64,000 bases of DNA from an uncultured Candidatus Saccharibacteria bacterium (GTDB lineage: Bacteria; Patescibacteriota; Doudnabacteria; UBA920). Position numbers and translations under genes: made by a program. Under the pieces are notes generated by a model. That model searched no databases. It saw only the letters and a list, made by a program, of their open reading frames with translations, and was not told where the DNA came from. Shown here in pieces: positions 7,342 through 58,771 of the stretch; position 1 is the first letter of the stretch, and each line of letters begins with the position of its first letter. The stretch spans positions 38,796-102,795 of the forward strand of contig CAYJQY010000002.1 of the NCBI GenBank assembly GCA_964372905.1, written 5' to 3'.

Positions 7342-8592
7342 ATGGAACTTTCAATTACCCAACAATTTTTTGATTCGATAAAAAAGGCCAAGTCCATCAT
7401 TATCGCCCTGCCCCAGCATTTTAGTGTTGATGCGGTTACCAGTGGTTTGGGTTTGAGCATGTTTTTGCGGCAGCTTGGGAAGCAGGCGGTTTTGGCCGGC
7501 AGCGGCCAGGTGCCTTCAGTGCGCTGGGACTTTTTGCCCGAACCCCCCGTCATCATTCCTGAATTATCCAGCGGCAAACAGTTGGTAGTTACAGTTGACA
7601 CCCGCGACCGTACACTCGACGAGTTGAGCTATCAGACCGACGCGGACAAGTTTGAAATTTTTCTCAAGGCCAAGCAGGGCAGTTTTGTACCCGAGGATGT
7701 GACCGTTGCCAATCGCAATGGGCAGTATGATCTGATTATCACTCTCGGGGCGGCTTCTTTGGACGATCTCGGCGCGCTGTATCAGAACCACGCCGAGTTA
7801 TTTTTTGGTTTACCCAAGATCAATATTGATATAAAGCCGGATAATGAATATTTTGGTACGATCAATTTGGTTGATGTGACTGTCAGCTCCTTGGCCGAAT
7901 TTCTGGCGGTCACGTTAGGCGCGAATGAATTGGGCCAGGAGATTGGCGGAGATGTGGCCACCTGTTTTTTGGCCGGCATCATCGCCAAAACGCACAGTTT
8001 TCAGCAGCCGCAGACTACGCCGCAGACTTTGACGGTCGCGGCCGATCTCATTCAGCGCGGCGCCCGGCAGCAGGATATTATTGTCAGCTTGTATAAGACC
8101 AAAGATTTTTCTTTATTGAAACTGTGGGGTCGCGCCTTGGCGCGTTTGCAAACCGACGAAGCCCACTCTCTGCTTTATACGATTTTAAGTTCTGATGACT
8201 TCGCCCGGGCCCAGAGCGGCCCGGAGCAGCTGACGGCCGTGCTGCGCGAGTTCATCGACAACGTCAGCGGCTATCAAGTTTTGGCGGTAATGGGGGAGAT
8301 AGGCGACGGTCAGTCCGGAGGTACGGCTGCCGGCGCGGCAGGTTCCGGCGGCGGAGCCGCTGGGGCTGGGGTTGATGTTGGCGCGCCCGACAAAGGCGTA
8401 CGCATTCTTATTGCCGCACCCCCGCACATTTCTTTGAGCCGCTTGGCCCAGGAACTCTCGGGAGGGCAGCAGCCTCAGCCGGCCCAATCCCTGCGTGGCG
8501 CGCATCAGTTCGTGTCAGTTGACCTGCCCGGGACCACGTTGGCCGAGGCCGGAGCCGCCTTGCTTAAGGCAATGGTTCAGAGCGCGACGTAG
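7342..8592 (+). CDS. DHH/DHHA1-family phosphoesterase-like protein (NrnA-like) with degenerate catalytic motifs
   Basis: NrnA-like N-terminal layout (IIIALPQHFSVDAVTSGLGL), but the DHH triad position reads DIKPDNEY. The DHHA1 GGGH motif is replaced by a Gly/Ala-rich insert GSGGGAAGAG. Confidence 0.5.
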   Translation: MELSITQQFFDSIKKAKSIIIALPQHFSVDAVTSGLGLSMFLRQLGKQAVLAGSGQVPSVRWDFLPEPPVIIPELSSGKQLVVTVDTRDRTLDELSYQTDADKFEIFLKAKQGSFVPEDVTVANRNGQYDLIITLGAASLDDLGALYQNHAELFFGLPKINIDIKPDNEYFGTINLVDVTVSSLAEFLAVTLGANELGQEIGGDVATCFLAGIIAKTHSFQQPQTTPQTLTVAADLIQRGARQQDIIVSLYKTKDFSLLKLWGRALARLQTDEAHSLLYTILSSDDFARAQSGPEQLTAVLREFIDNVSGYQVLAVMGEIGDGQSGGTAAGAAGSGGGAAGAGVDVGAPDKGVRILIAAPPHISLSRLAQELSGGQQPQPAQSLRGAHQFVSVDLPGTTLAEAGAALLKAMVQSAT

Positions 8593-8744: not shown

Positions 8745-10394
8745 ATGAATAAAAGTTTTTTGGCGACATCGCCGGCAGACCTTCACCGCGCGCTGGAGGA
8801 AGAAAAAGAGCACATCCGCGAGCAGGAAATCGGCAAACAGGCCAACCTGCTTCATTTGCCCTATATCAACCTTCGCGGCTTTCCCATCGATTTAACCGTC
8901 CTCGGACTTTTTACAGAGCAGGAAGCGCGGCAATTTCAGGCCGTGCCTTTTTTTCGCGAGCATCACGACCTGCGGATTGCCGCGGTCGAGCCGGGCAACG
9001 CGCTGCTTAAAGAAAAAATCAAAGAACTCCAGCAAAAATATACAGTTACTTTGCACCTAATTTCGCCGGCCAGTCTGGAGCACGCCTTGCACCTTTACGC
9101 CAAAGTTTTAGTGCTCAAGCCCGAGCACGAAAGCGCGGTTAAAATCAGTAAGCCTATCAATCCCGATGAGTTTTTTGCCAAAATGAACTCCGGGCAGGCG
9201 CAGGAAGCAATGACTACGAGTGAACTTATTAACAATATTTACGCTTCGGCTGTTGCGCTCGCGGCTTCGGACATCCACCTTGAGCCGGAAGAAAATTTTG
9301 TGAAATTGCGTTTTCGCCTCGATGGAGTTCTCCAGGATATGCTCCATATTTCCAAAAAACTTCAGCGCACCCTAACCGCAAGAATAAAAATTTTATCTAA
9401 ACTCAAACTCAACGTGGAAAATATGCCGCAGGATGGGCGCATGACTTTTTTCGTCCAGAATGAACCGGTCGATGTCCGCGTTTCGACCTTGCCGTCGGCT
9501 TATGGCGAGGGCATTGTCTTGCGGCTGTTGGGAATCGGCGCCATAAACCTCAAACTTAATGAACTGGGCTTGCGCGGCAAGGCCTACGAACACATCGAAC
9601 ACATTCTTGGCCAGCCCAACGGCATGGTTATTACTACCGGCCCCACGGGCAGCGGCAAGACCACCACGCTCTACGCTTTTTTGAACGAACTTAACAAACC
9701 CGGCGTGAAAGTTATTACTCTCGAGGACCCGGTGGAATATAAGCTGGAAGGAATTTCACAAACGCCAATAGATCATAACGTGGATTTCAACTTCGCCAAA
9801 GGCCTGCGCGCCATTCTGCGCCAGGACCCTGATATCGTCATGGTCGGGGAGATCCGCGATCAGGAAACTGCGGAAACGGCCCTGCAGGCTTCTCTGACCG
9901 GCCACCTCGTGCTTTCGACCTTGCACACGAATGACGCGGCCGGCGCAATCCCGCGCCTAATTTCCATGGGCGTTAAGCCTTTCGTGATTGCCCCGGCCCT
10001 CAATGCCGTAATTGCCCAGCGCCTGGTGCGCAAGCTGTGTCCGGACTGCAAAGAAGCCGCTAAACTTCCGGCGGCTTTACTGGCGCGCGTAGAAGATGTG
10101 CTCAAGCAAATTCCCGTCGGCGCTGGAGCCGCCGTTCCCGGACAGCTGCAGTTTTATCGTTCCCGCGGCTGTAGCCAATGCCACAACCTCGGCTACCGCG
10201 GCCGCATCGGCGTTTACGAAGTCCTGCCCGTGACCGATGAGGTTAGGGAACTGATTTTAAAGGAATCATCCGGAGTCCAGTTGAAGCAATTGGCAATCAA
10301 GGAAGGCATGGCCACTATGGTGCAGGACGGTTTACTCAAGGCGCTGGAAGGCATTACCGACGTGGAGGAAGTTTTTCGGGTGACGGGGGAATAA
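8745..10394 (+). CDS. pilB: Type II/IV secretion system ATPase (PilB/GspE family)
   Basis: Walker A GPTGSGKTT, the ITLEDPVEY Asp box, the His box and a C-terminal Cys4 (CPDC...CSQC) zinc motif. Confidence 0.9.
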   Translation: MNKSFLATSPADLHRALEEEKEHIREQEIGKQANLLHLPYINLRGFPIDLTVLGLFTEQEARQFQAVPFFREHHDLRIAAVEPGNALLKEKIKELQQKYTVTLHLISPASLEHALHLYAKVLVLKPEHESAVKISKPINPDEFFAKMNSGQAQEAMTTSELINNIYASAVALAASDIHLEPEENFVKLRFRLDGVLQDMLHISKKLQRTLTARIKILSKLKLNVENMPQDGRMTFFVQNEPVDVRVSTLPSAYGEGIVLRLLGIGAINLKLNELGLRGKAYEHIEHILGQPNGMVITTGPTGSGKTTTLYAFLNELNKPGVKVITLEDPVEYKLEGISQTPIDHNVDFNFAKGLRAILRQDPDIVMVGEIRDQETAETALQASLTGHLVLSTLHTNDAAGAIPRLISMGVKPFVIAPALNAVIAQRLVRKLCPDCKEAAKLPAALLARVEDVLKQIPVGAGAAVPGQLQFYRSRGCSQCHNLGYRGRIGVYEVLPVTDEVRELILKESSGVQLKQLAIKEGMATMVQDGLLKALEGITDVEEVFRVTGE

Positions 10395-10583: not shown

Positions 10584-11285
10584 ATGAAAGTTAAAGATTT
10601 GATGACAACCAAGATCATTTCTGTCACGCTTGAGACTCCCATTCACGAAGTCGCGGAAATTTTAGAAAAATTTCATTTTACCGGGGTGCCGGTGGCAGAC
10701 GGCAAAAAAGTCGCCGGACTTATCGCTGAACGTGATTTCATTACCAGTGACTCGAATTTATACCTGCCGACATACATTAAATTGCTGACCGATCTGGATT
10801 TTGTTTCGGGCGATAAAAAACGGCTCCCGCCCCAGGCCCAGAAAATCATCAATGCCAAGGCCCGTGATATCATGAACAAAAAGGTCATCACGGTTTCGCC
10901 GGACGCATCGCTGGAAGAACTGGCCCAGCTCTTTGCCACCAAACGGGTCAACCCAATTCCGGTAACTGACAAGCAAGGCAACATGGTCGGGATTATCTCC
11001 CGGAGCGATCTGATCAAATTGTTTTCGAAAACCAATTTAAAAGACCAAGGCATTGTCGACCATCCCCATCGTGTCATTGACGAAAATGTTGAGGAGGTGC
11101 ATGAGCAATTCCAATCTCATTTTTCTTTGGTCACCAAGGCCCGGGCCAATGTCTGGCTGGTGGTGGCCATTGTCTTGTTCGTTATCGGATTTATTATCGG
11201 GATTGTTTATGTGGTGGACCCAAATTATTTTCTCGGCAGTACCCAGGATGAATATCAACTTTATGATCAGGGGAGTGATTATTGA
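10584..11285 (+). CDS. CBS-pair domain protein with a C-terminal TM anchor preceded by the shared TKARANVWL motif
   Basis: Two CBS repeats at the N-terminus. The C-terminus reads HFSLVTKARANVWLVVAIVLFVIGFIIGIVYVV, which has the same motif+TM as the N-termini of the next three genes. Confidence 0.7.
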   Translation: MKVKDLMTTKIISVTLETPIHEVAEILEKFHFTGVPVADGKKVAGLIAERDFITSDSNLYLPTYIKLLTDLDFVSGDKKRLPPQAQKIINAKARDIMNKKVITVSPDASLEELAQLFATKRVNPIPVTDKQGNMVGIISRSDLIKLFSKTNLKDQGIVDHPHRVIDENVEEVHEQFQSHFSLVTKARANVWLVVAIVLFVIGFIIGIVYVVDPNYFLGSTQDEYQLYDQGSDY

Positions 11286-11347
11286 GGTAAAGCGTCGCCA
11301 GTTTTTTTGCCAATTTTTACGGTAACTGCTCACTGCTTTTGCCGCGC

Positions 11348-11376
11348 TTGCCAAAATCTTTATTTTGTGCTATAAT
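11348..11376 (+). promoter_or_regulatory. Sigma70-type promoter
   Basis: TTGCCA-17 nt-TATAAT about 50 nt upstream of the ORF starting at 11427. Confidence 0.5.
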
Positions 11377-11426
11377 TATATAAAGATTAAATAAAAAGCA
11401 GCTAAATAAAAAACTAAAATTACTAT

Positions 11427-12953
11427 ATGAAAAAGGATCATTGGTTTTCATCATCTTCATCTTCACGGCCGCTGGCAAGCGCGGCTAAACTGTTCCGGCG
11501 CATTGCCCACCGCAGAGCCAACATCTGGTCGGTGACTATTTTAGTCATGTTTCTTATAGTGGTATACATTATGATTCAGCTGGTGGGGCTGACCAATAGC
11601 CAAGTTTCTTCGCCGGTGGCCGATGCCAGCATAAAGGACTACTATAACGCTCGAATCGAGAAACTGACGCAGCGCGACCGGTGGGGTTTATTAGCCAGTC
11701 TGCTTTCCCCCACGACTCCACAAAGTCCCCCGGCCGCAGTGGTTACCGACCCTTCCGGTTCGGGGATTCTCCAAAATCCTCCGGTCGGGCAAGCTACAGA
11801 CCCGTCCGTTGTAAATATCGTAGTGGACGACCCGTCTATTTTTACCAAGCAGGATCAGGGACCGAGCGCACCACTTATTAGGCCCTTTGACAAGTTCGGC
11901 AATGTTCCCGCAGTCTGGCTCTGGGCTATTCAGGGTAAGAGTCACGCGGCATTTTTTTACCCAAATACAGGGAGAGATTATGACCAGTTAAACGCTCGGG
12001 TTCAGAACTGTCAGCAGGCGCTTAGCACTATCACAAATAATCCCCCTATTCTTAACTGCCCGCGTGATATAGTAAATGCTCTTCCTATAAGGATGCTATA
12101 TATTGTTGATTGGGGTGATGGCAAACAGACGACTGATTATGGGAATCTCTCTAGCGAGAATGGTATAACGGCTGGCGAGGCTTCTATACCGAGAGACAGT
12201 CACAGTTATGCCAATCCTGGTGTATATTCCGTAACCGCCAAGGCTTGTTATGGCAGATTCCCGATGCCTACTGGTCCAGGAGTGAACATTAGAAACCCCG
12301 GCAGTTTCCAACCTGGTCCTTTGGATGGCCGCTGTAGCGCGGAAAGCCATTGGCAAATGAGAGTGGTTACGCAAGCCGATGGTATAGACCCTGTTTCACA
12401 TGCCACGACGGCTACTCCAAAGTTGGCTGGTCCGCAGCTGATCGCAAAACTTGCCCCAAACCAACCTAATGAGAAAAGTAGCACTCGCGTTGGTGGCTAT
12501 CCTACTTACAAAATAGGCAATAATATTCCTTTGGGTATTCTTAGAGTCATCAATGTAGGCGAAACCCCAGAAACAATAAGAAGTATTTTGATAGAACCAA
12601 GCGGCATCAGTAGTATCCCCCAGGTACGAGTCAAACTAAACGGTGAAATTATCGGGGATACCATGCAAAAGATCATAGTCCTTACAAAGCCAGTATCGTT
12701 ATCTGTGGGTCAATCGGTTGACCTTCAGTTTTTTGGCGATGCCAATATTAATGAAAACTTCGCAAGTGCTGGTCCTTCTAGTAGTCGTTATGGTCGCGGA
12801 GATGATATCTTTCAATCCTTTGGCATTAGTGGGCTGAATGTTAATAGTTTAAGCGATATGAAGCTGTCAGGTGCCGGCTCCCCCAATCTAAATCTCGGCA
12901 ATTTCGAGCTTGATAATAACGGTGACACTCCCGGCAGCATTCAGACTAATTGA
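11427..12953 (+). CDS. Membrane-anchored surface protein with PKD-like domain (RANIW motif plus TM at N-terminus, Pro-rich linker)
   Basis: N-terminus LFRRIAHRRANIWSVTILVMFLIVVYIM. PKD-like motif YIVDWGDGKQ...HSYANPGVYSVTAKA. Confidence 0.6.
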   Translation: MKKDHWFSSSSSSRPLASAAKLFRRIAHRRANIWSVTILVMFLIVVYIMIQLVGLTNSQVSSPVADASIKDYYNARIEKLTQRDRWGLLASLLSPTTPQSPPAAVVTDPSGSGILQNPPVGQATDPSVVNIVVDDPSIFTKQDQGPSAPLIRPFDKFGNVPAVWLWAIQGKSHAAFFYPNTGRDYDQLNARVQNCQQALSTITNNPPILNCPRDIVNALPIRMLYIVDWGDGKQTTDYGNLSSENGITAGEASIPRDSHSYANPGVYSVTAKACYGRFPMPTGPGVNIRNPGSFQPGPLDGRCSAESHWQMRVVTQADGIDPVSHATTATPKLAGPQLIAKLAPNQPNEKSSTRVGGYPTYKIGNNIPLGILRVINVGETPETIRSILIEPSGISSIPQVRVKLNGEIIGDTMQKIIVLTKPVSLSVGQSVDLQFFGDANINENFASAGPSSSRYGRGDDIFQSFGISGLNVNSLSDMKLSGAGSPNLNLGNFELDNNGDTPGSIQTN

Positions 12954-13024
12954 TGATAAAAGAATTGGGTACACGCCATGCTTAGTTCACGCCGGAGCAA
13001 ACATTTGAGCAGAGCCGATTAAAT

Positions 13025-14125
13025 ATGAAATTTCATACCGCCAAGATCTTCACCCGCTTCGCGGCGTTGCGCAAGCGCAAGGCCAATATCTGGCTTACTT
13101 CTACAATCGTTTTGGCTATCGCGGCAGTTTATGTTTTGGTGATGGCGGCCGCACTCTTAGGTTCGCCGGACAAAAGTTCGCCGTACAACCAAAGTGAAGC
13201 CAAACAACTTGGGATAAGGTACAATAATCGGTTTAAAAAGTTGACTTTAGGATCGCTTTTGTCGCCTCATATCACACTGCCTGCTCCTGTCGAGACTATT
13301 CCATCTTCGGTTGCCCCGCCCGACCCAACCATCCCGCCAAGCCCGCCCGTTCCATCCGACCCGACCCCGGCAACCCAGACTTCTTTGCCGGCCCTAAACG
13401 CGCCGAAAACCGGGGACCAGTGGCCCCAGGGTTCCATCCAAACCATCAGCTGGAACAAAGAGGATTTTAAAAACGGCATTTATTTGCGCCTGCTCAAGGG
13501 CGGCCAACTTTATCCCGGAAATGCGGCTAGCGTGGCCGGGAAATTTGAATTGGGTCATATGGAAGGCTCCAGGTATGTACCGGCCCATGCGCAGTCATTC
13601 GGCAACCAGGGCGTATTTGAATGGGTTGTGCCCGATGTGCCGGCCGGCAATGATTACGCGGTTCAGGCCATTGACGGCGGGGGCGTTGCGGTGGCGCAGA
13701 GCGGCGCGTTTAGCGTTACTGCCCCGTCCCAGGCATTTCAAATCATCGCGCCTTCGGCCGGCGAGCGCCTGGCATTCGGGATCGATTATGCGATTAAGTG
13801 GAAGGCGTTGGTTTCGTTGGCGGGTCCCATTGACATTGCCATCTATCAGAAAGCAAACGACTTCAGCGGCCCGAACTCAAACGGCCTCGGCGGCCTGTCT
13901 TACATTGCCAAACGCATCCCCCAAGATTGGCTTTATATAGTCAACGGAGTAGTCAACTGGACCTGGAGCGTAAGCGCTTCTAATAATCTCTCCACGGCGG
14001 GCGGCATCGGCGGTCTCATAACTTCTGATGATGCCACGCGCGTGATCATTACGGCGTCCGACCATTCCGCCAGCGGGCAAAGCGCGCCGTTCGCCGTGGG
14101 CCTGGCCGGCAGCGCAGGCTATTAA
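13025..14125 (+). CDS. Membrane-anchored surface protein, paralogue of the preceding gene (KANIWL motif plus TM, Pro-rich linker)
   Basis: N-terminus FAALRKRKANIWLTSTIVLAIAAVYVLV. It shares YNxRxxKLT....LLSP after the TM with 11427..12953. Two W..G.I.W-type beta-rich repeats. Confidence 0.55.
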   Translation: MKFHTAKIFTRFAALRKRKANIWLTSTIVLAIAAVYVLVMAAALLGSPDKSSPYNQSEAKQLGIRYNNRFKKLTLGSLLSPHITLPAPVETIPSSVAPPDPTIPPSPPVPSDPTPATQTSLPALNAPKTGDQWPQGSIQTISWNKEDFKNGIYLRLLKGGQLYPGNAASVAGKFELGHMEGSRYVPAHAQSFGNQGVFEWVVPDVPAGNDYAVQAIDGGGVAVAQSGAFSVTAPSQAFQIIAPSAGERLAFGIDYAIKWKALVSLAGPIDIAIYQKANDFSGPNSNGLGGLSYIAKRIPQDWLYIVNGVVNWTWSVSASNNLSTAGGIGGLITSDDATRVIITASDHSASGQSAPFAVGLAGSAGY

Positions 14126-14272
14126 AATCCCGCCGGCACGGCTTATTCAATCCTCATCCGGGGGAATTCGCGCTGTTTTACTTCCGTCGGTTACAAGGGC
14201 TATAATGATAATGTGAGTTGATTTTAAAATGAGATCCGTGAATCATTTCTTTATATATAGTTAACCAAAATT

Positions 14273-15304
14273 ATGCCAACAGTTCAACCTTCACAGCGGC
14301 CGATAGATGAGAGTGTGGAGATAGTCCAGCACGCGCTGAAATCGCGTTTTGCTTATGTGACCAAAGCGCGGGCGAATGTTTGGCTGACCGCGGGCATTAC
14401 CATGTTTGTTGCCGGTCTTGGAGGAAGCATACTTTTGACGGCTTATCAAAATGCATTAGTTAATATTCCGGCCGCGGCGCTTGACGGCGCATTTTTAACT
14501 GCCGGTCCGAGTATTGAAGGGCCTACCCAAGTCACGCAAGGCCAGGACAATGGTTTTGTGTTTGATGCCCCGGGCGCGGGCGCAACGGCTATCCGTTATG
14601 CGATTGATTGGGGCGATGGCAGTCCTGTGGCAGATACGGTTTCTACTGCCGCGAGCAAGCTCAATCTCACTCATAGCTACGCTCAAATCGGCAAGTTTAC
14701 CATAACGGGCAAAGCCGCATTCGCTTCCAGCGAGCAGTTTTCGGCACCCGCGACGCATGCCATAATTGTAACTGATCTGCGCGGCCTGTCTGCGCCGGCG
14801 GATTTAGTGGCGCTGGCGCTGGATGCGTCCAGTCCGGCTTCCCGCCGCGTTGCGGCCGGGCAGACCGACGCGGTTTTTGCGGCCATCAAAGCCGCGGCTT
14901 CGGAACAATCGGACATAACCCTAAAATCTTTGTTGATTTCTGTTAAGACCGTAGCTTCCGCCAATGCGGCCGGTTCCGGCGCGACTATTTTTAATGCGGC
15001 CGGCTCCAATGTAGTTGCCCCGCAAGCTAATTTTAGCCAGATAAAAATTTATTCGGGCGATACTTTACTGGGTAGCGCCTCGGTTGATGCTTTGTCGGGC
15101 CAAGTCCGCATAAGTCTTGGCGCTGGCATTACCATTCCCGCGGGAAGCGCCACGGTTTTATTAATTAAAGCTGATGTGCGGCCGGATGCGGCAGGCGGCG
15201 AATCTGTCCTTGGCGTTGCCGGCCTAACCACCCAGCCTGACACCGCGGTTTCAGCTTTGCCCGTGTATGGGAACACCATGACCATAGCGGCTGGCGCTCA
15301 ATGA
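14273..15304 (+). CDS. Membrane-anchored surface protein with PKD-like domain (TKARANVWL motif plus TM)
   Basis: N-terminus VEIVQHALKSRFAYVTKARANVWLTAGITMFVAGLGG, nearly identical to the CBS protein C-terminal motif. PKD-like YAIDWGDGSP...HSYAQIGKFTITGKA. Confidence 0.6.
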   Translation: MPTVQPSQRPIDESVEIVQHALKSRFAYVTKARANVWLTAGITMFVAGLGGSILLTAYQNALVNIPAAALDGAFLTAGPSIEGPTQVTQGQDNGFVFDAPGAGATAIRYAIDWGDGSPVADTVSTAASKLNLTHSYAQIGKFTITGKAAFASSEQFSAPATHAIIVTDLRGLSAPADLVALALDASSPASRRVAAGQTDAVFAAIKAAASEQSDITLKSLLISVKTVASANAAGSGATIFNAAGSNVVAPQANFSQIKIYSGDTLLGSASVDALSGQVRISLGAGITIPAGSATVLLIKADVRPDAAGGESVLGVAGLTTQPDTAVSALPVYGNTMTIAAGAQ

Positions 15305-15335: not shown

Positions 15336-15579
15336 TCTTGCCCATAGTCATTGTTGTAGTCATAAGCGTATCGCAAAAAAATAACAAAATCGCCCGTGAG
15401 GCGTTTTTTTGGACAGTTTACAGTCTAGTTTACAACTTTTAATAATGATGCCGAAATAAAGTTGTAAACCAGACTCATTCTATATGGATACAAGCGTATC
15501 GAGTAATTTTTCGTGAATAGGGGGTATAGTAACTTTTATTAAGATTGGAATGTATGTGCAGTTGTATTAAACTTTAGGT

Positions 15580-16152
15580 ATGAGCGCCGAAAAATCCAAT
15601 ATCTTCATCTTCCACGGCACCGCCGGCCATCCGAGCGAGAATTGGTTTCCGTGGGCCAAGGCGGAATTTGAAAAGCGGGGGTACATTGTAATCGTGCCGC
15701 AGTTTCCCACGCCCGAGGGGCAGTCCCTGGTAGCCTGGATGGCAGTGCTCGAGCCGTACCGGCCGCAGATCAACGCGGACACCATTTTAATCGGCCACAG
15801 TCTGGGCGGTTTGTTTTTGCTGCGCGTGCTGGAGCAGCTGCCGGCACCGGTAGCGGCCAGCGTGTTCGTGGGCACGCCCGTCGGCATCGAACCCATCAAA
15901 AATTTCTCAAGCGACGCGGCGTTCAGCCCCGGCTTTACCTTTGATTGGCCGACCATAGTGGCCCATGCCGGCCGGACTACGGTCTTCCATTCCGATAATG
16001 ATCCGTACGTATCCTTGGGCAACGGACAGGCGCTGGCCAAGGAGCTGGGCGTGGCCTTGAGCTTGATCCCCGGCGCCGGGCACTTTAACGCCCAGGCGGG
16101 GTATGTGAAGTTTCCGGGGTTGTTGGAATCTGTAGAAAAAATGTTAGAATAA
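15580..16152 (+). CDS. Alpha/beta hydrolase of the RBBP9/YdeN serine-hydrolase family
   Basis: FIFHGTAGHPSENW and the nucleophile elbow LIGHSLGG. 190 aa. Confidence 0.65.
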   Translation: MSAEKSNIFIFHGTAGHPSENWFPWAKAEFEKRGYIVIVPQFPTPEGQSLVAWMAVLEPYRPQINADTILIGHSLGGLFLLRVLEQLPAPVAASVFVGTPVGIEPIKNFSSDAAFSPGFTFDWPTIVAHAGRTTVFHSDNDPYVSLGNGQALAKELGVALSLIPGAGHFNAQAGYVKFPGLLESVEKMLE

Positions 16153-19604: not shown

Positions 19605-20621
19605 ATGGCAGAAATTTCTAAAAATCAACCAAAAGGTGAAATTGTAATTTATAACGATTCGCAAGGCCCGGCTATTGAAGTTAAGATGGAGAACGAAACT
19701 GTTTGGCTTTCTAGCGCACAAATGGCCGAGTTGTTTCAAAAAGACATAAAAACTGTTGCAGAACACATTCGTCATATTTATAGGGAAAATGAATTAGATA
19801 AAGGCAAAACTACTCTTAAACAAGCCAATGCTGGTATTTCCAGCATTGGCTCAAATAAGCCAACTATTTACTATAATCTCGACGTCATTATCTCCGTCGG
19901 CTACCGCGTAAAATCCAAGCGTGGCACCCAATTCCGCATCTGGGCCACGCAGAGGCTGCGGAATTATATCCTGCAGGGCTATCTTATTAATGAGCAGCGC
20001 TTGAAAGAGCGGCAAGACATTAAGTTCAAAGAGCTTGATGGTGCCATTAAATTATTGCGCAGCGCTGTGGAAAATCGCCGACTTGAGGGTTATGAAAAAG
20101 AATTATTCAACATCATTACCGAGTACGCCAGCACGTGGGTTTTGCTCAATCGCTACGATGCCGGCACGCTGGCGCTGAAAAAAACCACCAAGGTCATGCC
20201 GTATAGTTTGGAATATGACAGCATCAAAAAGTCCATTGCACGCTTCAAGACGAGATTAATAAAAGATAAACAGGCCAGCGAGTTGTTCGGCAAAGAAGTT
20301 GAGTCAAAGTTGAAAGCGATTTTAGGAAATATTGAACAAACTTTTGCCGGCAAGCCGCTTTACGCCAGCTTGGAAGAGAAAGGCGCGCACTTATTGTACT
20401 TCGTCATCAAAGACCATCCGTTTGCCGACGGCAACAAACGCATCGGTTCGCTATTATTTTTGCTTTATCTGGTGGAGAACAATCGCGTCTACAATAAGCG
20501 CGGCGAGCGGCTAATTAATGATAATACTTTAACCGCGCTTGCATTGCTCATCGCCGAAAGTAAACCGGATAATAAAGAAGTGATGGTGGCTTTGGTAGCT
20601 AATTTAATTGCAAAAAAATGA
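19605..20621 (+). CDS. RhuM-family N-terminal domain fused to Fic/Doc-family domain (Doc-type motif HPFADGNKR)
   Basis: N-terminus resembles RhuM (TVWLSSAQMAELF...ISVGYRVKSKRGTQFRIWATQ). The C-terminus has the Fic/Doc core HPFADGNKRIGS, with NKR as in Doc toxins. An AT-rich 285-bp region lies upstream. Confidence 0.75.
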   Translation: MAEISKNQPKGEIVIYNDSQGPAIEVKMENETVWLSSAQMAELFQKDIKTVAEHIRHIYRENELDKGKTTLKQANAGISSIGSNKPTIYYNLDVIISVGYRVKSKRGTQFRIWATQRLRNYILQGYLINEQRLKERQDIKFKELDGAIKLLRSAVENRRLEGYEKELFNIITEYASTWVLLNRYDAGTLALKKTTKVMPYSLEYDSIKKSIARFKTRLIKDKQASELFGKEVESKLKAILGNIEQTFAGKPLYASLEEKGAHLLYFVIKDHPFADGNKRIGSLLFLLYLVENNRVYNKRGERLINDNTLTALALLIAESKPDNKEVMVALVANLIAKK

Positions 20622-51448: not shown

Positions 51449-51487
51449 GCTTGATCTTTCCGACCAGCTTGCTGGCTGTGGAGATTC
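51449..51487. repeat. ~40-bp repeat element, copy 2
   Basis: GCTTGATCTTTCCGACCAGCTTGCTGGCTGTGGAGATTC. It lies between divergent promoters: livK on the + strand, and a TTGAAA-17-TAAAGT candidate upstream of tRNA-Glu on the - strand. Confidence 0.6.
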
Positions 51488-51541
51488 GTTTAACTCCTAT
51501 TGAAGCCCCCTCATCGACCATAAAAGCCACAAAAAGTCAAT

Positions 51542-51570
51542 TTGACAGCCGACCCTTTTTGGCTTATATA
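51542..51570 (+). promoter_or_regulatory. Sigma70-type promoter of the liv cluster
   Basis: TTGACA-17 nt-TATATA about 40 nt upstream of the livK-like ATG at 51607. Confidence 0.5.
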
Positions 51571-51606
51571 TCTTATATATGGAGCAAAAGTATTAACCTA
51601 AAAATT

Positions 51607-52776
51607 ATGGACAAAACAACAAGGACAGTCGTGTGGGTCGTCATAGCCCTGGTGGTAATCGGCTTGGTTTACGCTATGGCCAAGCGGTCGGACAACCAGC
51701 AGGCGTCGAACGGCGATAAAATGGTGGCGGGGGAAACGTATAAAGTTGGTTTTTCATTTCCCTTGACTGGCGATGCTGCTTCGTACGGTGAACCGGCCCG
51801 CAATGTAGTGCAGTTAGCTATCGATGAAATTAATGACATTGGGGGAGTGAACGGCAAAAAACTGGAAGCGATTTTTGAAGATGATAAGTGCAATGGCAAG
51901 GATGCCGCCAATGCCGCTCAAAAATTAGTTAATGTTGATCGCGTACAAGTAATCATCGGCAGTATGTGTAGTAGCGCTAGTTTGGCCGAAGTACCAATAG
52001 TTACTGCAGGAAAAATTGTTATGTTTTCACCAGGTTCAACTAATCCGGGATTAACCGGCATCAGCAAATATTTTTTCCGCAATATTCCCAGTGATGCAAG
52101 CCAGGGAGCCGTTGACGCAGAGTTTGTCTATAAGAGAGGACTACGCAAGGCGGCCTTTATCGTAGAATCCAAAGATTACCCCTTGGGTATCTATAAGGCA
52201 TTTTCCGAGCGTTTCCAACAGCTCGGAGGCACGACCCTGAAAGAAGAATTCCCGACTGACGCTACCGATTTCCGTACGCAGTTAACAAAGTTGCGCAGCC
52301 AGAATCCAGACTTGTTATTTATTGACCCGCAGGCGCCAGCGAGTGCGGAACGAATCTTAAAGCAGTTGAAAGATTTGGGATGGAAAGTTCAGTTGATGAT
52401 TAATGAAGCTACCGCTGGTGATCAAAAGACGATTGCTGATAATAAAGATATGTTGGAGGGTGCTTACGGGGCTGAATTTGTACTTGATCAAAGCAATTCT
52501 AAATTACAGCACTTACTTGAATCCTACAAAAAAAGGTATGGCGGTGAACTGCCATTTCAGAGTTATGGGTCAACCGAATATGATGCTGTGTACCTGATTC
52601 GTGATGGCATAGCGGCAGTTGGATATGATGGGGAAAAGTTAGCCGACTGGTCTCGTACTGTTAAAGATTGGGATGGAGCATCTGGCAAGACAACTATTAA
52701 GTCAGATGGTGACCGCGAGAGTGGTTACTCTTCGGAAATCGTGAAAGATGGCAAGATGACAGTTTATAAAGAGTAG
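51607..52776 (+). CDS. livK: Branched-chain amino acid ABC transporter substrate-binding protein (LivK/LivJ family)
   Basis: N-terminal TM/signal anchor MDKTTRTVVWVVIALVVIGLVYA. Peripla_BP_6-like KVGFSFPLTGDAASYG. The upstream part of the listed ORF, from a TTG inside the repeat, was rejected. Confidence 0.8.
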   Translation: MDKTTRTVVWVVIALVVIGLVYAMAKRSDNQQASNGDKMVAGETYKVGFSFPLTGDAASYGEPARNVVQLAIDEINDIGGVNGKKLEAIFEDDKCNGKDAANAAQKLVNVDRVQVIIGSMCSSASLAEVPIVTAGKIVMFSPGSTNPGLTGISKYFFRNIPSDASQGAVDAEFVYKRGLRKAAFIVESKDYPLGIYKAFSERFQQLGGTTLKEEFPTDATDFRTQLTKLRSQNPDLLFIDPQAPASAERILKQLKDLGWKVQLMINEATAGDQKTIADNKDMLEGAYGAEFVLDQSNSKLQHLLESYKKRYGGELPFQSYGSTEYDAVYLIRDGIAAVGYDGEKLADWSRTVKDWDGASGKTTIKSDGDRESGYSSEIVKDGKMTVYKE

Positions 52777-52860
52777 CCGCGCTTTGTAGCCGCGCTCTTC
52801 TAAAAGAGGGCGGTTTTGATATATAAGCCAAAATTGGCTATACTGGAGCCATAAAGTCTC

Positions 52861-53727
52861 ATGTCCATCCTCCCGCAGCTGATTGCCAACAGCGTTATTG
52901 CCGGCGCCATCTATGCCCTCATCGCGCTCGGTTTTAATTTGGTCTACTCGACGACCAAGTTTTTTAATTTGACGCACGGCGTAATGGCCGCGGTCGGCGG
53001 CTACGCCGTGTTTTATCTGGCGGCTACTTTGGGTTGGAACATTCATGTCAGCGTCATAGTCGGCGCTTTGGCCGCGGGTGCGCTCGGCTACGTTTTAGAC
53101 CGGCTGGTCTACCGTCCGCTGCGCCGGCGCAAGGCTTCGCGCCTGGTTTTGCTCGTTGCCTCGCTGGGCGCGTTCACCGTAATCCAGGCCACGCTGGCTA
53201 TTATTTTTACCAGCCAGTTTCAGACTTTGTCGCAGTACGCGCCCATTCAAAAAATTTACGAAATCGGCGGCGCGGCCATTACCGGCGTGCAGCTTCTGAT
53301 TTTATTTTCCTCTCTGGCCATTATGTTGATCCTGACGCTTGTCCTTAAATTTACGTTGTTCGGGACCGCGGTCAAAGCCATTGCCGATGATGAGGAAGTC
53401 GCCAAAATTGTCGGCATTGATACCGATAAAATTATCGGCCGCGTGTTTTTTATTGGTTCGGCCATTGCCGGGCTGGTGGGAATTTACGTGGGCTTTGACA
53501 CGGGCATTGAACCAACCATGGGCCTGCGCCTTCTGCTGTCCGGCGTCATCGCTTCCATTATCGGGGGTGTGGGCAATGTTTACGCCGGCGTGGTTGGCGC
53601 GTTCGTGCTGGGCTTCGCGGAAAACTTCGGCATCTGGAAAATTTCCGGCGAATGGAAAGACGCCATCGCTTTCGGCCTGCTGATTTTATTTTTAATTTTC
53701 CGGCCGCAGGGAATTTTTAAAAGATGA
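52861..53727 (+). CDS. livH: Branched-chain amino acid ABC transporter permease LivH
   Basis: 288 aa with 8 TM helices. LivH-type N-terminus MSILPQLIANSVIAGAIYALIALGFNLVY. Confidence 0.85.
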   Translation: MSILPQLIANSVIAGAIYALIALGFNLVYSTTKFFNLTHGVMAAVGGYAVFYLAATLGWNIHVSVIVGALAAGALGYVLDRLVYRPLRRRKASRLVLLVASLGAFTVIQATLAIIFTSQFQTLSQYAPIQKIYEIGGAAITGVQLLILFSSLAIMLILTLVLKFTLFGTAVKAIADDEEVAKIVGIDTDKIIGRVFFIGSAIAGLVGIYVGFDTGIEPTMGLRLLLSGVIASIIGGVGNVYAGVVGAFVLGFAENFGIWKISGEWKDAIAFGLLILFLIFRPQGIFKR

Positions 53728-53748
53728 AACTTAGATTATTTTGATGGG

Positions 53749-53837
53749 CGGCTCGGGATACTTTTTCTCCTGGCTGCGGAACTCGCCGCTTCGCGGCTCA
53801 AACAGTCCTCGCGTAGTCGAAAAAGATCCGCTCGCCG
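53749..53837. repeat. 90-bp intergenic repeat element, copy B (livH-livM spacer)
   Basis: See copy A. It had been wrongly translated as the first 39 codons of the listed 53741 ORF. It has an in-frame stop in copy A and a frameshifting indel between copies, so it is non-coding. Confidence 0.8.
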
Positions 53838-53857
53838 CCTTAAGCAATAGCAAATTT

Positions 53858-54724
53858 ATGGAATATTTAACTCATCTCGCAATCCTGGTTTCCATCTACG
53901 CCATTTTGGCCATGAGCTTGAATTTGGTTGTGGGATATACCGGCTTGCTGGCTTCAGGCCACGCGGCGTTTTACGGGATTGGCGCATACGTAACCGCGTT
54001 GCTCCTCACCCGTGTCGGCATGAATTTTTTCCCCGCCTTGGGTTTAGCCATACTTATTTCCGCCGGCGCTGGTCTGGCCATTGGCCTGGTTTTAAGCCGT
54101 TTCAAAGCCGACTTTTATGTCCTGGCCTCGCTCGGCTTTAATGCCATTGTCTTTAGCATCATGCTCAATTGGCAAGATCTCACCCGTGGCCCGTTGGGCA
54201 TTCCCGGCATTCCGCGGCCCCAGCTGGCGGGCTTGGATTTTTCATCAAACCAAAATTTTCTGCTGCTGTCTGTTGTGCTGGCCGTGGTAGTGTATGTGCT
54301 GGCGCGACTCATTGCCAATTCTTCTTTCGGCCGCGTGCTCAAAGCCATTCGGGAAGATGAAACCGTAGCTGGCGTGTTTGGCTATCACACTATGCATTAT
54401 AAATTGATAATATTCGTCATCGCCGCTGGCCTCGCCGCCATTGCCGGCGCGCTGTTCGCCTCGTATATTACCTTTATTGATCCTACCACGTTCAACATCG
54501 CCGAATCAATTTTCCTCTTGGCCATAATTATTCTCGGTGGCCTGGCCAATTTAAATGGAGCGATTCTTGGCGCGCTGTTTTTAACCCTGCTGCCCGAACT
54601 CCTGCGCTTCGTGGGCTTTCCCTCGGATGTGGCCGCGCAAATGCGCCAGGTCGTCTATGGTTTGCTGCTGATTATTTTGATGCTGTACCGGCCCCAGGGC
54701 CTGATGGGGGAGTATAAGCTATAA
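53858..54724 (+). CDS. livM: Branched-chain amino acid ABC transporter permease LivM
   Basis: Start at MEYLTHLAILVS. LivM-type TM layout. 289 aa. Confidence 0.85.
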   Translation: MEYLTHLAILVSIYAILAMSLNLVVGYTGLLASGHAAFYGIGAYVTALLLTRVGMNFFPALGLAILISAGAGLAIGLVLSRFKADFYVLASLGFNAIVFSIMLNWQDLTRGPLGIPGIPRPQLAGLDFSSNQNFLLLSVVLAVVVYVLARLIANSSFGRVLKAIREDETVAGVFGYHTMHYKLIIFVIAAGLAAIAGALFASYITFIDPTTFNIAESIFLLAIIILGGLANLNGAILGALFLTLLPELLRFVGFPSDVAAQMRQVVYGLLLIILMLYRPQGLMGEYKL

Positions 54725-54741
54725 TAAGTAAGAATGACAAA

Positions 54742-55866
54742 ATGCATCACATGACAAAATTTGCAAAAATTTTCTTGGTTTTGATAATTTTCGCCGTCGT
54801 CGTGGGCTTAGTCTATAAGAATTCTCAAAAACAGAATTTGTCAAACAAAAACCCCACTCTAAAAATTGGCGGGATAATATTTTTGACTGGGCCTTATAGC
54901 GCACAAGGGGAGGAAATTAACCGCGGAGCTTTAATTGCAGTGGAAGAGGCTAAGCAAGCTGACATGGATGTGGAATATATACCTGAAGACGACGCATTTA
55001 CTAATACTGGAATGGTTAATGCAGCAAATAAGGTTTTGAAGCTCGACAGAGTAGACGCTGCTTTTGTGCCCACAGTAACTGAAGTTAAACCGATTTATTC
55101 ACTTTTCAATGCTGCAAAAATACCTCTGCTCGCGGTTTGGGACAGCAATAATCTCATTAAGGGCGCGGGAGATTATGTCTTTACTATTGGGTTCAACACT
55201 GAAGTCAACGCAGAGAAGATAGCCAATTATGCCTATGACAATTTGAAGGTCAGAAGAATTGCGGTCATCTCACAAATTGAAGATTGGTCGGAAATTATTT
55301 CCAGCACATTTGTTGACAAATTTAGTCAGCGAGGAGGACAAGCCGTACTTAGAGAAAAATTTCAATTGGAACAGAACGATTTTAGGACAGTTATAACCAA
55401 GGCGAAAAATTTAGGGGTGGATGCCGTCTACTTTCCTTTAAATGCTCCGGCAAACGGGCAATTTTTAAAGCAGGCCGACCAACTGGGCTTAAAAACCACT
55501 TTTTTGACCGGAGACGGCTTCATTGAAGAAGAAATCCAAGTTGCGGGTATGGCAGCAGAAAATGTTTATTTGACCCACCAGCAAAATGACAATATCGGAC
55601 CCTTAGTTGAAAAATATAGAGCAAGATACGGCAAAGATCCTTACGCCGAGGGTTTTGTAGCTTTCGGATATGATGCCATTAATACCTTGGTTGCGGCAAA
55701 AAAGATTGCTCTGCAAAAGAACATTAATCTGCGAGATGCGTTGACCCAAGTGGATATTCAAGGAGCCGGTAGTCACATTAATATGAAGGGAAATAGGTAT
55801 TCTGACCGAGTAGAAAAAATTAATCAGATAGTTAATGGTAAATATCAGCTTATTGAAAGACCATGA
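54742..55866 (+). CDS. Second ABC transporter substrate-binding protein (Peripla_BP_6 family)
   Basis: N-terminal anchor FAKIFLVLIIFAVVVGLVY, then KIGGIIFLTGPYSAQGEE. A paralogue of livK embedded in the same operon. Confidence 0.7.
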   Translation: MHHMTKFAKIFLVLIIFAVVVGLVYKNSQKQNLSNKNPTLKIGGIIFLTGPYSAQGEEINRGALIAVEEAKQADMDVEYIPEDDAFTNTGMVNAANKVLKLDRVDAAFVPTVTEVKPIYSLFNAAKIPLLAVWDSNNLIKGAGDYVFTIGFNTEVNAEKIANYAYDNLKVRRIAVISQIEDWSEIISSTFVDKFSQRGGQAVLREKFQLEQNDFRTVITKAKNLGVDAVYFPLNAPANGQFLKQADQLGLKTTFLTGDGFIEEEIQVAGMAAENVYLTHQQNDNIGPLVEKYRARYGKDPYAEGFVAFGYDAINTLVAAKKIALQKNINLRDALTQVDIQGAGSHINMKGNRYSDRVEKINQIVNGKYQLIERP

Positions 55867-56594
55867 AAATTCTGGAAACAAAAAACCTGATAAAAAAATT
55901 TGACGGCGTTCACGCCGTGAATCATCTTTCTCTTAGCTTCGAGCAGGGAAAAATTACGGCCATTGTCGGCCCTAACGGCAGCGGAAAAACCACGCTCACC
56001 AACGTGTTGTCCGGGGTTCTGCCCATAGACGGCGGCGCAGTTGTAATCCAAGGCGTTCACTTATCTAAAATTGTCCTGCATCAGGCGTCCGCTTACGGCC
56101 TGACGCGGACGTTCCAAGAAGTGCGGCTGTTCAACCAAATGACCGTGCTCGATAATATTCTGGTGGTGTTGACCGCGCGCAACGTTTTGGCTGCGCTGTT
56201 TGAGCCCAGCAAGCCCTTATATCATCAGCAAGCCGAAATCGTTCTCAAGCGCGTGGGCTTGTGGGACAAGCGCCGCGCTCTGGCCGGCAATCTCTCTTAC
56301 GGCCAGCGCAAGCTGTTGGAAATTGCGCGGGCCGTGGCCATGGACGCGGAAATTTATTTGTTCGATGAACCGTTCGCCGGTCTGTTTCCCGAAATGGTCA
56401 AGCAGATGGTGGAAATTTTGCAGCGGCTCAAGCTGTTGGGCAAGACCGTTATTTTGATCGAACATAATATGGATCTCATCCGTAAACTTTCCGATTATGT
56501 TTTTGTGATGGACAGCGGCCAGCTTTTGGCCGAAGGCCGGCCCGGCGAGGTGCTGGCGCGCAAGGAAGTTATTGAAGCGTATTTGGGGGAATAG
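55863..56594 (+). CDS. livG: Branched-chain amino acid ABC transporter ATP-binding protein LivG
   Basis: Walker A GPNGSGKTT, signature LSYGQRKLLEIARA and Walker B IYLFDEP. The start overlaps the previous stop (ATGA). Confidence 0.85.
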   Translation: MKILETKNLIKKFDGVHAVNHLSLSFEQGKITAIVGPNGSGKTTLTNVLSGVLPIDGGAVVIQGVHLSKIVLHQASAYGLTRTFQEVRLFNQMTVLDNILVVLTARNVLAALFEPSKPLYHQQAEIVLKRVGLWDKRRALAGNLSYGQRKLLEIARAVAMDAEIYLFDEPFAGLFPEMVKQMVEILQRLKLLGKTVILIEHNMDLIRKLSDYVFVMDSGQLLAEGRPGEVLARKEVIEAYLGE

Positions 56595-56678
56595 ATTAAA
56601 TAGAGCTAATTGGTACAATCAAAAAAATAAAAAAATTTTTCTGCAAAAAATCAATCATCAGATCTAGTCCAAATTTTT

Positions 56679-57413
56679 ATGACAACTTCCCCGGACCAAA
56701 AAATTGTGCAGTTGAACAATATTTCCGTGCATTACGACGGCGTCAAAGCAGTTGATGATGTGACGCTGGCGCTGGCTCGCGGCGAGGTCGTGGCTCTCAT
56801 GGGCCCTAATGGCGCCGGAAAGTCCACGATCTTAAAAGCCATTTTTGGCCTGACGCCCATTGACCGCGGCCAAATTTTCTTGCATGGCCAGCTAGTTACG
56901 CCGGTGCCGCACCAAGTCGTGCAGCAGGGCGTGTCGTTCGTGCCGCAGGGCCGCCGCGTGTTCACGCATCTGACTATTGATGAAAATCTGGATATGGGGG
57001 GCTTTGCGGTCAAAGATAAGCGCGCGCTGGCCCAGGCCAAACGCGAGATGCTGGAATTGTTTCCTGATTTGAAGCAAAAGCGCCGCGCCAAATCCGGAAC
57101 CTTGTCCGGCGGCCAGCAGCAAATGCTGGCTTTGGCGCGCGGCCTCATGACCCGGCCGCAAGTGCTGCTGCTCGATGAGCCGTCTTTAGGACTGGCGCCG
57201 AAAATCGTTAAAGAAATTTTTGTTAAGATTAGGGAGATCAATGAAATGTACGGCACAGCTATGATTATTGTCGAGCATAACATCAAATCGCTGCTGGAAA
57301 TTGTCAGCCGCGCCTACGTGCTCGACAAAGGAAAAATTCTCGCCGAAGGCGATGCCCAGAAGCTCAGCCACAGCGAAATCCTGGAAAAAATCTTCCTCGG
57401 AAAATTGGAATGA
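56679..57413 (+). CDS. livF: Branched-chain amino acid ABC transporter ATP-binding protein LivF
   Basis: Walker A GPNGAGKST, LSGGQQQMLALARGL, LLLDEPSLGLAP and a LivF-type C-terminus. Confidence 0.85.
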   Translation: MTTSPDQKIVQLNNISVHYDGVKAVDDVTLALARGEVVALMGPNGAGKSTILKAIFGLTPIDRGQIFLHGQLVTPVPHQVVQQGVSFVPQGRRVFTHLTIDENLDMGGFAVKDKRALAQAKREMLELFPDLKQKRRAKSGTLSGGQQQMLALARGLMTRPQVLLLDEPSLGLAPKIVKEIFVKIREINEMYGTAMIIVEHNIKSLLEIVSRAYVLDKGKILAEGDAQKLSHSEILEKIFLGKLE

Positions 57414-58724: not shown

Positions 58725-58771
58725 TTTGTGATGATAGTCGCCGGGCCGGATTGCCGCGCAATTTGAACATT

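Follow-up and report, generated by a model that had tools for sequence, protein, structure and literature searches.

I analysed a stretch of 64,000 nucleotides (hereafter referred to as the window) from an uncultured Candidatus Saccharibacteria bacterium (assembly GCA_964372905.1, contig CAYJQY010000002.1, positions 38,796-102,795 of the forward strand), placed by GTDB in the lineage Bacteria; Patescibacteriota; Doudnabacteria; UBA920. Four consecutive genes on the forward strand of this window, labeled A to D, encode proteins that share one module, composed of a cytoplasmic helix ending in the signature R-A-N-[IV]-W and a single transmembrane (TM) helix. I consider it very nearly certain that this module is real, conserved and so far undescribed, and that it exists in both fused and split forms.

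Gene A (10584-11285, 233 amino acids) encodes a CBS-pair protein, from a conserved family of 212–240 amino acids in the candidate phyla radiation (CPR), with the module at its C-terminus (11070-11246, residues 163–221): the cytoplasmic helix RVIDENVEEVHEQFQSHFSLVTKARANVW is followed by the TM helix LVVAIVLFVIGFIIGIVYV and then by the extracellular residues VDPNYF. The other three genes encode single-pass surface proteins with the module at the N-terminus. In B (11427-12953, 508 amino acids), a short form of the module (11484-11606, residues 20–60, AKLFRRIAHRRANIWSVTILVMFLIVVYIMIQLVG) precedes a Pro/Ser-rich linker, a PKD-like WGDG stretch and a beta-rich C-terminal part, and the protein has no Pfam family match. 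Protein C (13025-14125, 366 amino acids) also carries the short form (13046-13171, residues 8–49, IFTRFAALRKRKANIWLTSTIVLAIAAVYVLVMAAALLGS), followed by a Pro-rich linker and an Ig-like domain of the Kre9_KNH family (PF10342, E=7.8e-9, 36.6 bits for a cut-off of 24.6). Protein D (14273-15304, 343 amino acids) possesses a full-length module (14297-14443, residues 9–57, RPIDESVEIVQHALKSRFAYVTKARANVWLTAGITMFVAGLGGSILLTA), a PKD-like domain and a second beta-sandwich domain. The Pfam models PKD_4 (16.4 bits) and PKD (15.0 bits) both score under their cut-offs on D; the AlphaFold2 (AF2) model of this protein places beta domains at residues 80–167 and 177–338 after a helix spanning residues 11–62, and in a Foldseek comparison residues 80–167 match PKD domains with a target-normalised template-modelling score (TM-score) of 0.72–0.77 and a root-mean-square deviation of 2.2–2.9 Å. 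The predicted topology is the same for all four proteins, with the N-terminus inside, the C-terminus outside and the basic cluster on the cytoplasmic side. The order of the four genes is identical in two assemblies from independent read runs (L001 and L002).

The six-frame translation of the window contains the pattern [KR]AN[IV]W four times, with a single copy per gene in A to D and none elsewhere; in 200 shuffles of the window the pattern was found 0.06 times on average, and twice at most. Each copy directly precedes, on the cytoplasmic edge, the sole strong hydrophobic segment of its protein. This bears out the original prediction, which was made from these letters and proposed that four consecutive proteins share a motif and a TM segment, and every peptide that it quoted was found exactly as written. 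It also pointed to some additional likeness in the sequences flanking the first and last copies. BLASTP aligns residues 158–203 of A with residues 4–49 of D at 52% identity over 46 amino acids (E=7e-13). In the remaining comparisons, B and C are 38% identical over 98 amino acids (E=1e-9), in a match that runs beyond the TM helix, C and D match in the module region with E=1e-4, and B and D match both in the module (E=0.004) and in the IDWGDG stretch of the PKD-like region, which both possess (E=1e-5).

A trivial explanation, raised at the outset, was that corrected gene starts would remove the motif from the coding regions. In D, the sole downstream in-frame Met falls within the TM helix, and the module is the most conserved part of the D orthologues, so that alternative starts cannot remove it. 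No Shine-Dalgarno-like sequence was found before any of the four starts. Strong sigma-70-like promoter matches are present upstream of B (11348-11376, 11 of 12 positions, with an extended -10 TG) and upstream of D (14177-14206, 10 of 12), and from these matches the four genes may be transcribed separately rather than as one operon.

The A and D copies both encode the peptide VTKARANVWL, in which five of the ten codons differ synonymously. Over the 46 aligned amino acids, the codon differs at 15 of the 24 identical residues, and the nucleotide identity is 62%. Synonymous differences beneath identical residues indicate an old divergence under purifying selection. A recent gene conversion or a repeat cassette was considered and rejected, as no DNA repeat longer than 29 nucleotides exists in the region and the identical peptides differ in their codons; an assembly artefact as the source of the likeness does not fit the codon differences either.

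I aligned 27 module sequences, which gave an alignment of 69 columns with no gap at all. The module is larger than originally described, and corresponds to an ungapped stretch of ∼55–60 residues, R-x-I-D…F-A-x-V-x-K-x-R-A-N-[IV]-W, followed by one TM helix with F..GxxxG. On the cytoplasmic side, ∼28 residues form a helix with the pattern R-x-I-D-x2-V-x6-Φ-x3-F-A-x-V-x-K-x-R-A-N-[IV]-W, and the TM helix continues it unbroken as W-Φ-T-x3-V-L-F-x2-G-x3-G, thereby presenting a GxxxG or small-xxx-small face; many members continue on the extracellular side with the motif Y-V-A-D-P-N-x-F. Residues R9, D12, R33, A34, N35, W37 and G48 of the alignment are invariant, and F26, K31 and F45 nearly so. In a larger set of 139 sequences, the conserved positions of the cytoplasmic helix (11/12, 15, 22, 26, 29, 33 and 37) lie on a single face, positions 26 to 39 are conserved throughout, and G48xxxG52 is present in the TM helix. 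After the TM helix, YVADPN is strong among the CBS-type members and optional among the N-terminal copies. The AF2 models of A (residues 164–210) and D (residues 11–62) both show a single continuous helix that spans the cytoplasmic and TM parts.

A hidden Markov model (HMM) built from the 27 members scores 95.6 bits on A (residues 160–221), 85.3 on D, 22.9 on C and 20.6 on B (E=1.5e-4); the A and D copies are among the 27, so that their scores are partly self-matches. The full signature, R-x-[IV]-D…F-[AS]-x-[VI]-x-K-x-R-A-N-[IVL]-W-x-T with a TM helix bearing F..G in a gap-free register, is present in A and D. B, C and the short forms of two other loci (L112 and L115) possess only the core of R-A-N-I-W and the TM helix.

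I then searched for the module in other proteins. The four window copies alone were used as the query of an exhaustive HMMER search of 1.84 billion representative proteins, and this profile search, which the original prediction had proposed, recovered the family: 43 proteins at E<=1e-3, of which about 20 are 312–579 amino acids long with the module at residues ∼5–75, and six are of the CBS type with the module at residues ∼160–220. Searches based on a word index missed the family, with no match for the four-copy alignment and only D itself for D; these are false negatives of the index. None of the Pfam and NCBIfam models covers the module, in line with its description at the outset as family-specific and unrecognised, and a search of the PDB with the module profile gave no significant match. 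The top PDB matches were to the mitochondrial cytochrome c oxidase subunit 4 (E=0.23–0.5), and this candidate relative was set aside as a chance match; the shared layout of a helix, N-x-W and a TM segment with F..G is probably chance or convergence. A literature search on CBS proteins in CPR or Doudnabacteria, and on signal anchors in Patescibacteria, found nothing relevant to the module.

Several known N-terminal signals resemble the module to some extent. Like it, the class III prepilin signal read by PilD has a basic stretch and a signature on the cytoplasmic face of an N-terminal hydrophobic helix, in this case with a pilB gene nearby. However, the module reads R-A-N-[IV]-W-L-T at this position, without Gly at -1 or Glu at +5, it has no N_methyl or TIGR02532 match, and no prepilin peptidase gene was found among the 37 larger open reading frames of the window that were scanned. 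The YSIRK-G/S and KxYKxGKxW motifs also sit just before the hydrophobic core of many unrelated surface proteins of one lineage. These are however cleaved Sec signals with other motifs, never found at the C-terminus of a cytoplasmic protein, whereas the module comprises a ∼28-residue helix and a full-length TM helix; both motifs are absent from the module sequences, and B, C, D and their relatives have no NCBIfam match for them. Finally, the LPXTG/sortase, PEP-CTERM/exosortase and GlyGly-CTERM/rhombosortase systems similarly reuse a signature, a TM segment and a basic cluster on many surface proteins, and the basic-TM-YVADPN layout of the module is the mirror image of such C-terminal tripartite signals. 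In contrast to these, the module is N-terminal, or C-terminal on a cytoplasmic protein, its extracellular motif is optional, and no cognate enzyme was found. The view that it is neither a class III pilin signal nor a sortase signal is thus borne out.

It could nevertheless be a dedicated sorting or processing signal of a new kind, in which R-A-N-x-W, possibly together with YVADPN, would be read by a membrane enzyme or export route that targets, cleaves or attaches the proteins. A short invariant signature located exactly at the membrane boundary, beside a basic cluster and one TM helix, would be expected of such a signal, as would interchangeable ectodomains and the presence of several carriers per locus (three in the window, a short and a long form in L112 and L115). 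I nonetheless regard this as unlikely. No peptidase or sortase candidate recurs beside the genes in the loci examined, and the module is also found at the C-terminus of a cytoplasmic CBS protein, a position that is meaningless for an N-terminal export signal. The highest conservation within the module is in a cytoplasmic helix of 28 residues, far longer than the n-region of known signals, the TM segment is long (about 20–22 residues) and predicted to be continuous with this helix, and YVADPN is absent from B, C, D and the D orthologues.

The origin of the module becomes clearer from the family of gene A. This protein contains two CBS domains (PF00571, Pfam E=8.6e-30), and its AF2 model has a mean predicted local distance difference test (pLDDT) score of 84, above 90 over most of residues 1–147. 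Foldseek matches to this model are all CBS pairs (MJ0922, ST2348, AcuB, S2P-CBS, E of about 1e-12), and none was obtained for the helix. A homology search with A gave 309 matches, most of them 212–240 amino acids long, with source names such as “CBS domain-containing (membrane) protein” from Candidatus Doudnabacteria or the Patescibacteria group. The full-length matches cover 91–100% of A, and among the 120 matches listed the coverage is 64–100%. All 104 full-length members that I read (104/104) possess the C-terminal module, with the family pattern R-x-I-D-x-Q-V…F-x-S-x-FAYVAKARANIWLT-x2-VLF-x-VGF-x2-GIIYVADPNIF. The module is not a local invention: a widespread CBS family has it as its ancestral C-terminus.

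The CBS pair of this family has features of its own. An invariant insertion, S..LYLPTYIKLL, separates CBS1 from CBS2 (10752-10787, residues 57–68 of A); it is kept in both fused and short CBS forms, is modeled as a helix (residues 61–75), and may be considered a candidate docking surface on the basis of this model. The invariant stretches G-x3-E-R-D and G-x3-R-x-D appear to resemble ribose-binding motifs. CBS pairs typically bind an adenosyl ligand, such as AMP, ATP, SAM or c-di-AMP, and thereby control the protein to which they are attached or a separate partner, as in MgtE, CNNM, ClC, OpuA and CbpB/DarB. The envelope of a TIGR00400 match, which reaches residue 200 of A, suggested that the module might be the plug helix and first TM helix of MgtE, but this was rejected, as the MgtE chains in the PDB align to residues 92–165 of A only. 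A possesses one TM helix instead of five, and its TIGR00400 score is 45.8 bits for a cut-off of 232.75, which does not place it in the MgtE family.

In four related loci (L109, L110, L111 and L113) the two parts are encoded separately. The first gene encodes a CBS-only protein of 155–162 amino acids which ends right after CBS2, and the module starts the next gene, 19–138 nucleotides downstream, as in MTQTKNGHRAIDDSI…KTRANIWLT. The split point coincides exactly with the linker that follows CBS2 in A. A further locus, that of protein P0039, is arranged likewise in gene order, and its downstream gene, of 516 amino acids, may be module-first as well. The CBS identity to A and to P0005 is 74–78% for L110 and L111, and about 60% for L109 and L113; the short CBS forms are therefore interleaved with fused ones in sequence space, which implies that fission or fusion took place more than once. 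In the window, in L083/L084 and in L089, and weakly in L103, the CBS gene is of the fused form and a module-first gene comes next. Fused and split gene pairs, known as “Rosetta stone” pairs, tend to encode interacting proteins. By this principle, the pattern of fission and fusion suggests a joint function for the CBS pair and the module, and I consider it the strongest argument at hand.

The same observations could be explained if the module were an ordinary signal-anchor shared by descent, the 3' end of the CBS gene having been duplicated onto downstream genes for membrane holding only. The module copies are indeed adjacent, the fission/fusion junction lies exactly in the linker after CBS2, and B and C keep a degenerate core only. 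However, a simple anchor would not retain seven invariant residues and a gap-free register over 27 sequences, or near-invariance at these positions over 139. In the D family, identity is 67% in the cytoplasmic helix, compared with 44% in the TM helix and 37–45% in the ectodomains, synonymous divergence without amino-acid change points to long-term purifying selection, and no DNA repeats hint at recent conversion. A generic signal-anchor, one of the outcomes that the original prediction had named as fatal to it, is contradicted by this register and selection pattern, and descent with an anchoring role alone appears very unlikely.

The surface proteins themselves are diverse. The module forms the N-terminus of about 20 clusters of surface proteins, with ectodomains that are PKD- or Ig-like or have no family assignment, and its three forms can be described as CBS-fused and C-terminal (A), N-terminal and long (D), and N-terminal and short (B and C). 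D has orthologues of 39–53% identity (P0135, P0140, P0141 and P0150), and the long form also precedes other ectodomains (P0125, P0143, P0155 and P0160). The short form keeps [RK]-A-N-[IV]-W and the TM helix only, with similar THA[RK]AN[IV]WL forms in L112 and L115. In one of the split loci (L110, 2560-3816), the module-first protein downstream of the short CBS gene contains the metzincin zinc-binding motif HELGHNFGLSH and matches Pfam Peptidase_M10 and M66, which indicates that the module anchors putative proteases as well as Ig-like proteins. Most of the remaining ectodomains could be assigned to no family. The proposal of a sensor fused to an anchor, together with three paralogous effectors, thus stands in part: the fission and fusion events favor the sensor and effector relationship, but the three surface proteins are not equivalent paralogues, D having the full module and B and C the short form.

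Taken with the conservation pattern, these arrangements suggest that the module is an association and docking device, acting beyond mere hydrophobic anchoring through CBS docking and TM pairing. As read from sequence comparison, I give this interpretation an even chance of being correct. The best-conserved part of the D family is a short cytoplasmic stub, which makes a conserved cytoplasmic partner most likely. The CBS pair would contact the juxtamembrane helix, in cis where the two are fused, and in trans where they are split or where the helix belongs to a surface protein. GxxxG motifs are known to mediate the pairing of TM helices, and pairing through this face could bring CBS and surface proteins together as homo- or hetero-oligomers. 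The cytoplasmic nucleotide or energy state might in this manner be coupled to the behaviour of adhesin-like or protease surface proteins, although the reverse direction, with surface engagement reported to the CBS pair, is equally possible. In the window, A would be the fused sensor, D a full-module partner, and B and C short-form partners that keep the RANIW-TM core.

There are precedents for both halves of this arrangement. In MgtE, CNNM/CorB/CorC, ClC and OpuA/OpuC, as in A, a cytoplasmic CBS pair, which senses an adenosyl ligand or an ion, is joined by a helix to the membrane part that it regulates, and the CBS pair of A matches these families in both sequence and fold. The module differs from MgtE, CNNM, ClC and OpuA in being a single TM helix with no transporter domain, shared with unrelated surface proteins and separable as a gene. 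The closest analogy to the proposed CBS docking is provided by PilN-PilM and GspL-GspE, where a bitopic protein shows a short conserved cytoplasmic N-terminal peptide to its partner. Here, in contrast, there is no INLLP motif and no PilN, PilO or GspL match, the proposed partner is a CBS pair rather than an actin-like protein or ATPase, and the ectodomains are Ig- or protease-like.

In its complete form, the proposal is that of a CPR-specific, modular, one-pass coupling system, in which a CBS pair acts on a juxtamembrane helix shared by interchangeable surface proteins, with TM pairing through GxxxG and the partner either fused or separate. Proteins in contact with the host would oligomerise, act or be released according to the energy or second-messenger state of the cell; alternatively, the signal would pass inward from host contact. 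I put this forward tentatively, as a possibility that falls clearly short of even. A number of observations weigh against the docking and pairing mechanism. Several full-module surface proteins are encoded far from any CBS gene (L112, L115 and L107). These belong to a second conserved locus type, queA-DUF2207-[short-form THA(R/K)AN(I/V)WL]-[587–597 amino acids]-[long-form]-DUF3048-AhpC (L112 3879-7855, L115 3494-8005, and also L107 938-2764), with no CBS gene on the 6–10 kb on either side of the module gene. Conversely, for many genes of the CBS family no neighbour within 10 kb bears the module (L085, L086, L093, L097 and L099). B lacks the TM glycine, both B and C lack the R-x-I-D helix, and neither of these two proteins could dock in the same manner if this helix is required. 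The conservation of G52 in the 139 sequences is much lower in the N-terminal class. Finally, the binding of an adenosyl ligand by the CBS pair of the A family is assumed from family resemblance alone.

CPR, or Patescibacteria, are thought to live attached to host cells, little is known of how their surface is regulated, and the majority of the proteins exposed there are unannotated. The module HMM provides a handle to pick out a class of surface proteins in these lineages, and gene fusion and fission tie these proteins to a conserved cytoplasmic CBS sensor. If the coupling proposal is true, adhesion or proteolysis on the cell surface would be linked in a simple manner to the energy or nucleotide state, and CBS domains would have a new use, in the regulation of single-pass surface proteins rather than of transporters or enzymes. 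At a minimum, public databases contain hundreds of proteins with this conserved and so far undescribed domain.

Immediately upstream of the CBS gene, the window encodes a PilB/GspE-type ATPase (8745-10394, forward strand, Pfam T2SSE E=4.5e-128), to which the original prediction linked the four genes. I consider it a neighbour only. The gene order around it, ruvB-M17-VanW-tsaE / DHH-pilB-[slot]-polA-…-uvrB-ABC-Mur ligase, is found in full in L113, and in L083 and L109 as far as their sequence extends, and in these three the slot between pilB and polA is filled by CBS and module genes. The pilB gene directly precedes the CBS gene in the window, L083, L103, L109 and L113, which all represent one inherited backbone (tsaE-DHH-pilB-[slot]-polA). 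The order tsaE-DHH-pilB-…-polA is kept in ten genomes with a PilB of 55–63% identity, and in none of the ten is the module present in the slot: polA directly follows pilB in L003, L008 and L010, and the remaining relatives have unrelated cargo. Among 80 pilB-related loci scanned, the module is next to pilB in none outside the sub-lineage of the window. The CBS gene is found elsewhere in other lineages, in the order ileS-x-CBS-recO (L086, L097 and L100), directly before polA (L085), or after a Big_7 gene (L110 and L111), which in L111 follows a sigma-70-like gene.

The four genes might also serve a type IV pilus or a secretion machine powered by the neighbouring PilB, as accessory components with a helix that docks on the ATPase or on a platform protein, in the way that PilN docks on PilM through its N-terminus, or GspL on GspE. 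This role was suggested by the position of pilB in these five contigs, and the alignment subcomplexes of type IV pili typically include bitopic proteins with a short, conserved cytoplasmic peptide. However, the five contigs amount to one inherited backbone, with relatives of 59–63% PilB identity in which polA follows pilB directly or the slot holds unrelated cargo, CBS-family genes occur in ileS/recO, polA and Big_7 contexts, and full-module proteins in the queA…AhpC locus. Pfam identified no pilC, pilD, pilM/N/O or pilin families in 37 of the larger open reading frames of the window, and a six-frame pattern search of the window found no class III pilin signal. I judge this role highly improbable. 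On gene order, the pilB adjacency is inherited synteny within one sub-lineage and offers no evidence for a pilus role; the proposed link is not general, and among the loci examined the module lies next to pilB in the sub-lineage of the window alone.

A different pilus was also considered, namely the CPR Pam pilus, with its donor-strand-exchange pilins and membrane-anchored chaperones. Pam proteins have an N-terminal Sec signal and a C-terminal TM helix, and their genes lie beside those of the ATP synthase (bioRxiv 10.64898/2026.03.03.709456). Like the surface proteins described here, PamR is CPR-specific, with Ig/FnIII-like domains and a single TM anchor, and the NCBIfam model CPR_pilus_PamR (NF058578) gives weak matches to D (23.5 bits), P0155 (21) and B (14.1). 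The equivalog cut-off of this model is 300 bits, however, and the matches span only ∼40 residues of the PKD/FnIII-like stretch. The topology of A to D is the opposite, and no ATP synthase or pam genes were found nearby. Membership of the Pam pilus was rejected on score, topology and gene neighbourhood, and I attach almost no likelihood to it.

The gene just upstream of pilB encodes a DHH-family protein (7342-8592) with a Gly/Ala-rich low-complexity insert (…GGTAAGAAGSGGGAAGAGVDVGAP…), and the majority of the related loci that I examined keep this adjacency of DHH and pilB genes. In other bacteria, the second messenger cyclic di-AMP (c-di-AMP) has been linked to DHH phosphodiesterases as well as to CBS pairs, which I mention as a lead only.

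Downstream of D, an alpha/beta hydrolase of the Ser_hydrolase family (15580-16152, forward strand, PF06821, E=2.7e-19) lies in the same pilB-polA slot, and its membership of the module system is uncertain. Between the two genes is an inverted repeat (15422-15475) of 18 nucleotides, 94% complementary, with an 18-nucleotide spacer, which overlaps a promoter-like site. Small alpha/beta hydrolases, Ser_hydrolase or Peptidase_S9-like, recur by module genes in the window, in L083 (13875-14444), L107 (134-886) and L112 (3182-3829). They occur in different locus types, and the one in the pilB-polA slot of L083 belongs to the same family as that of the window.

Directly downstream of polA, the window contains a RhuM/Fic-domain gene (19605-20621). 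The same gene follows polA in L085, and genes that share its N- and C-terminal sequences are found near polA in several related loci. Further along, the window encodes a Liv-type branched-chain amino-acid ABC transporter (51451-57413) with two binding proteins, two permeases and two ATPases, as well as a pyridine-nucleotide disulphide oxidoreductase (58751-59707) and a Glu/Leu/Phe/Val dehydrogenase (61177-62460). Together, these represent a metabolic capacity above that usually expected of CPR.

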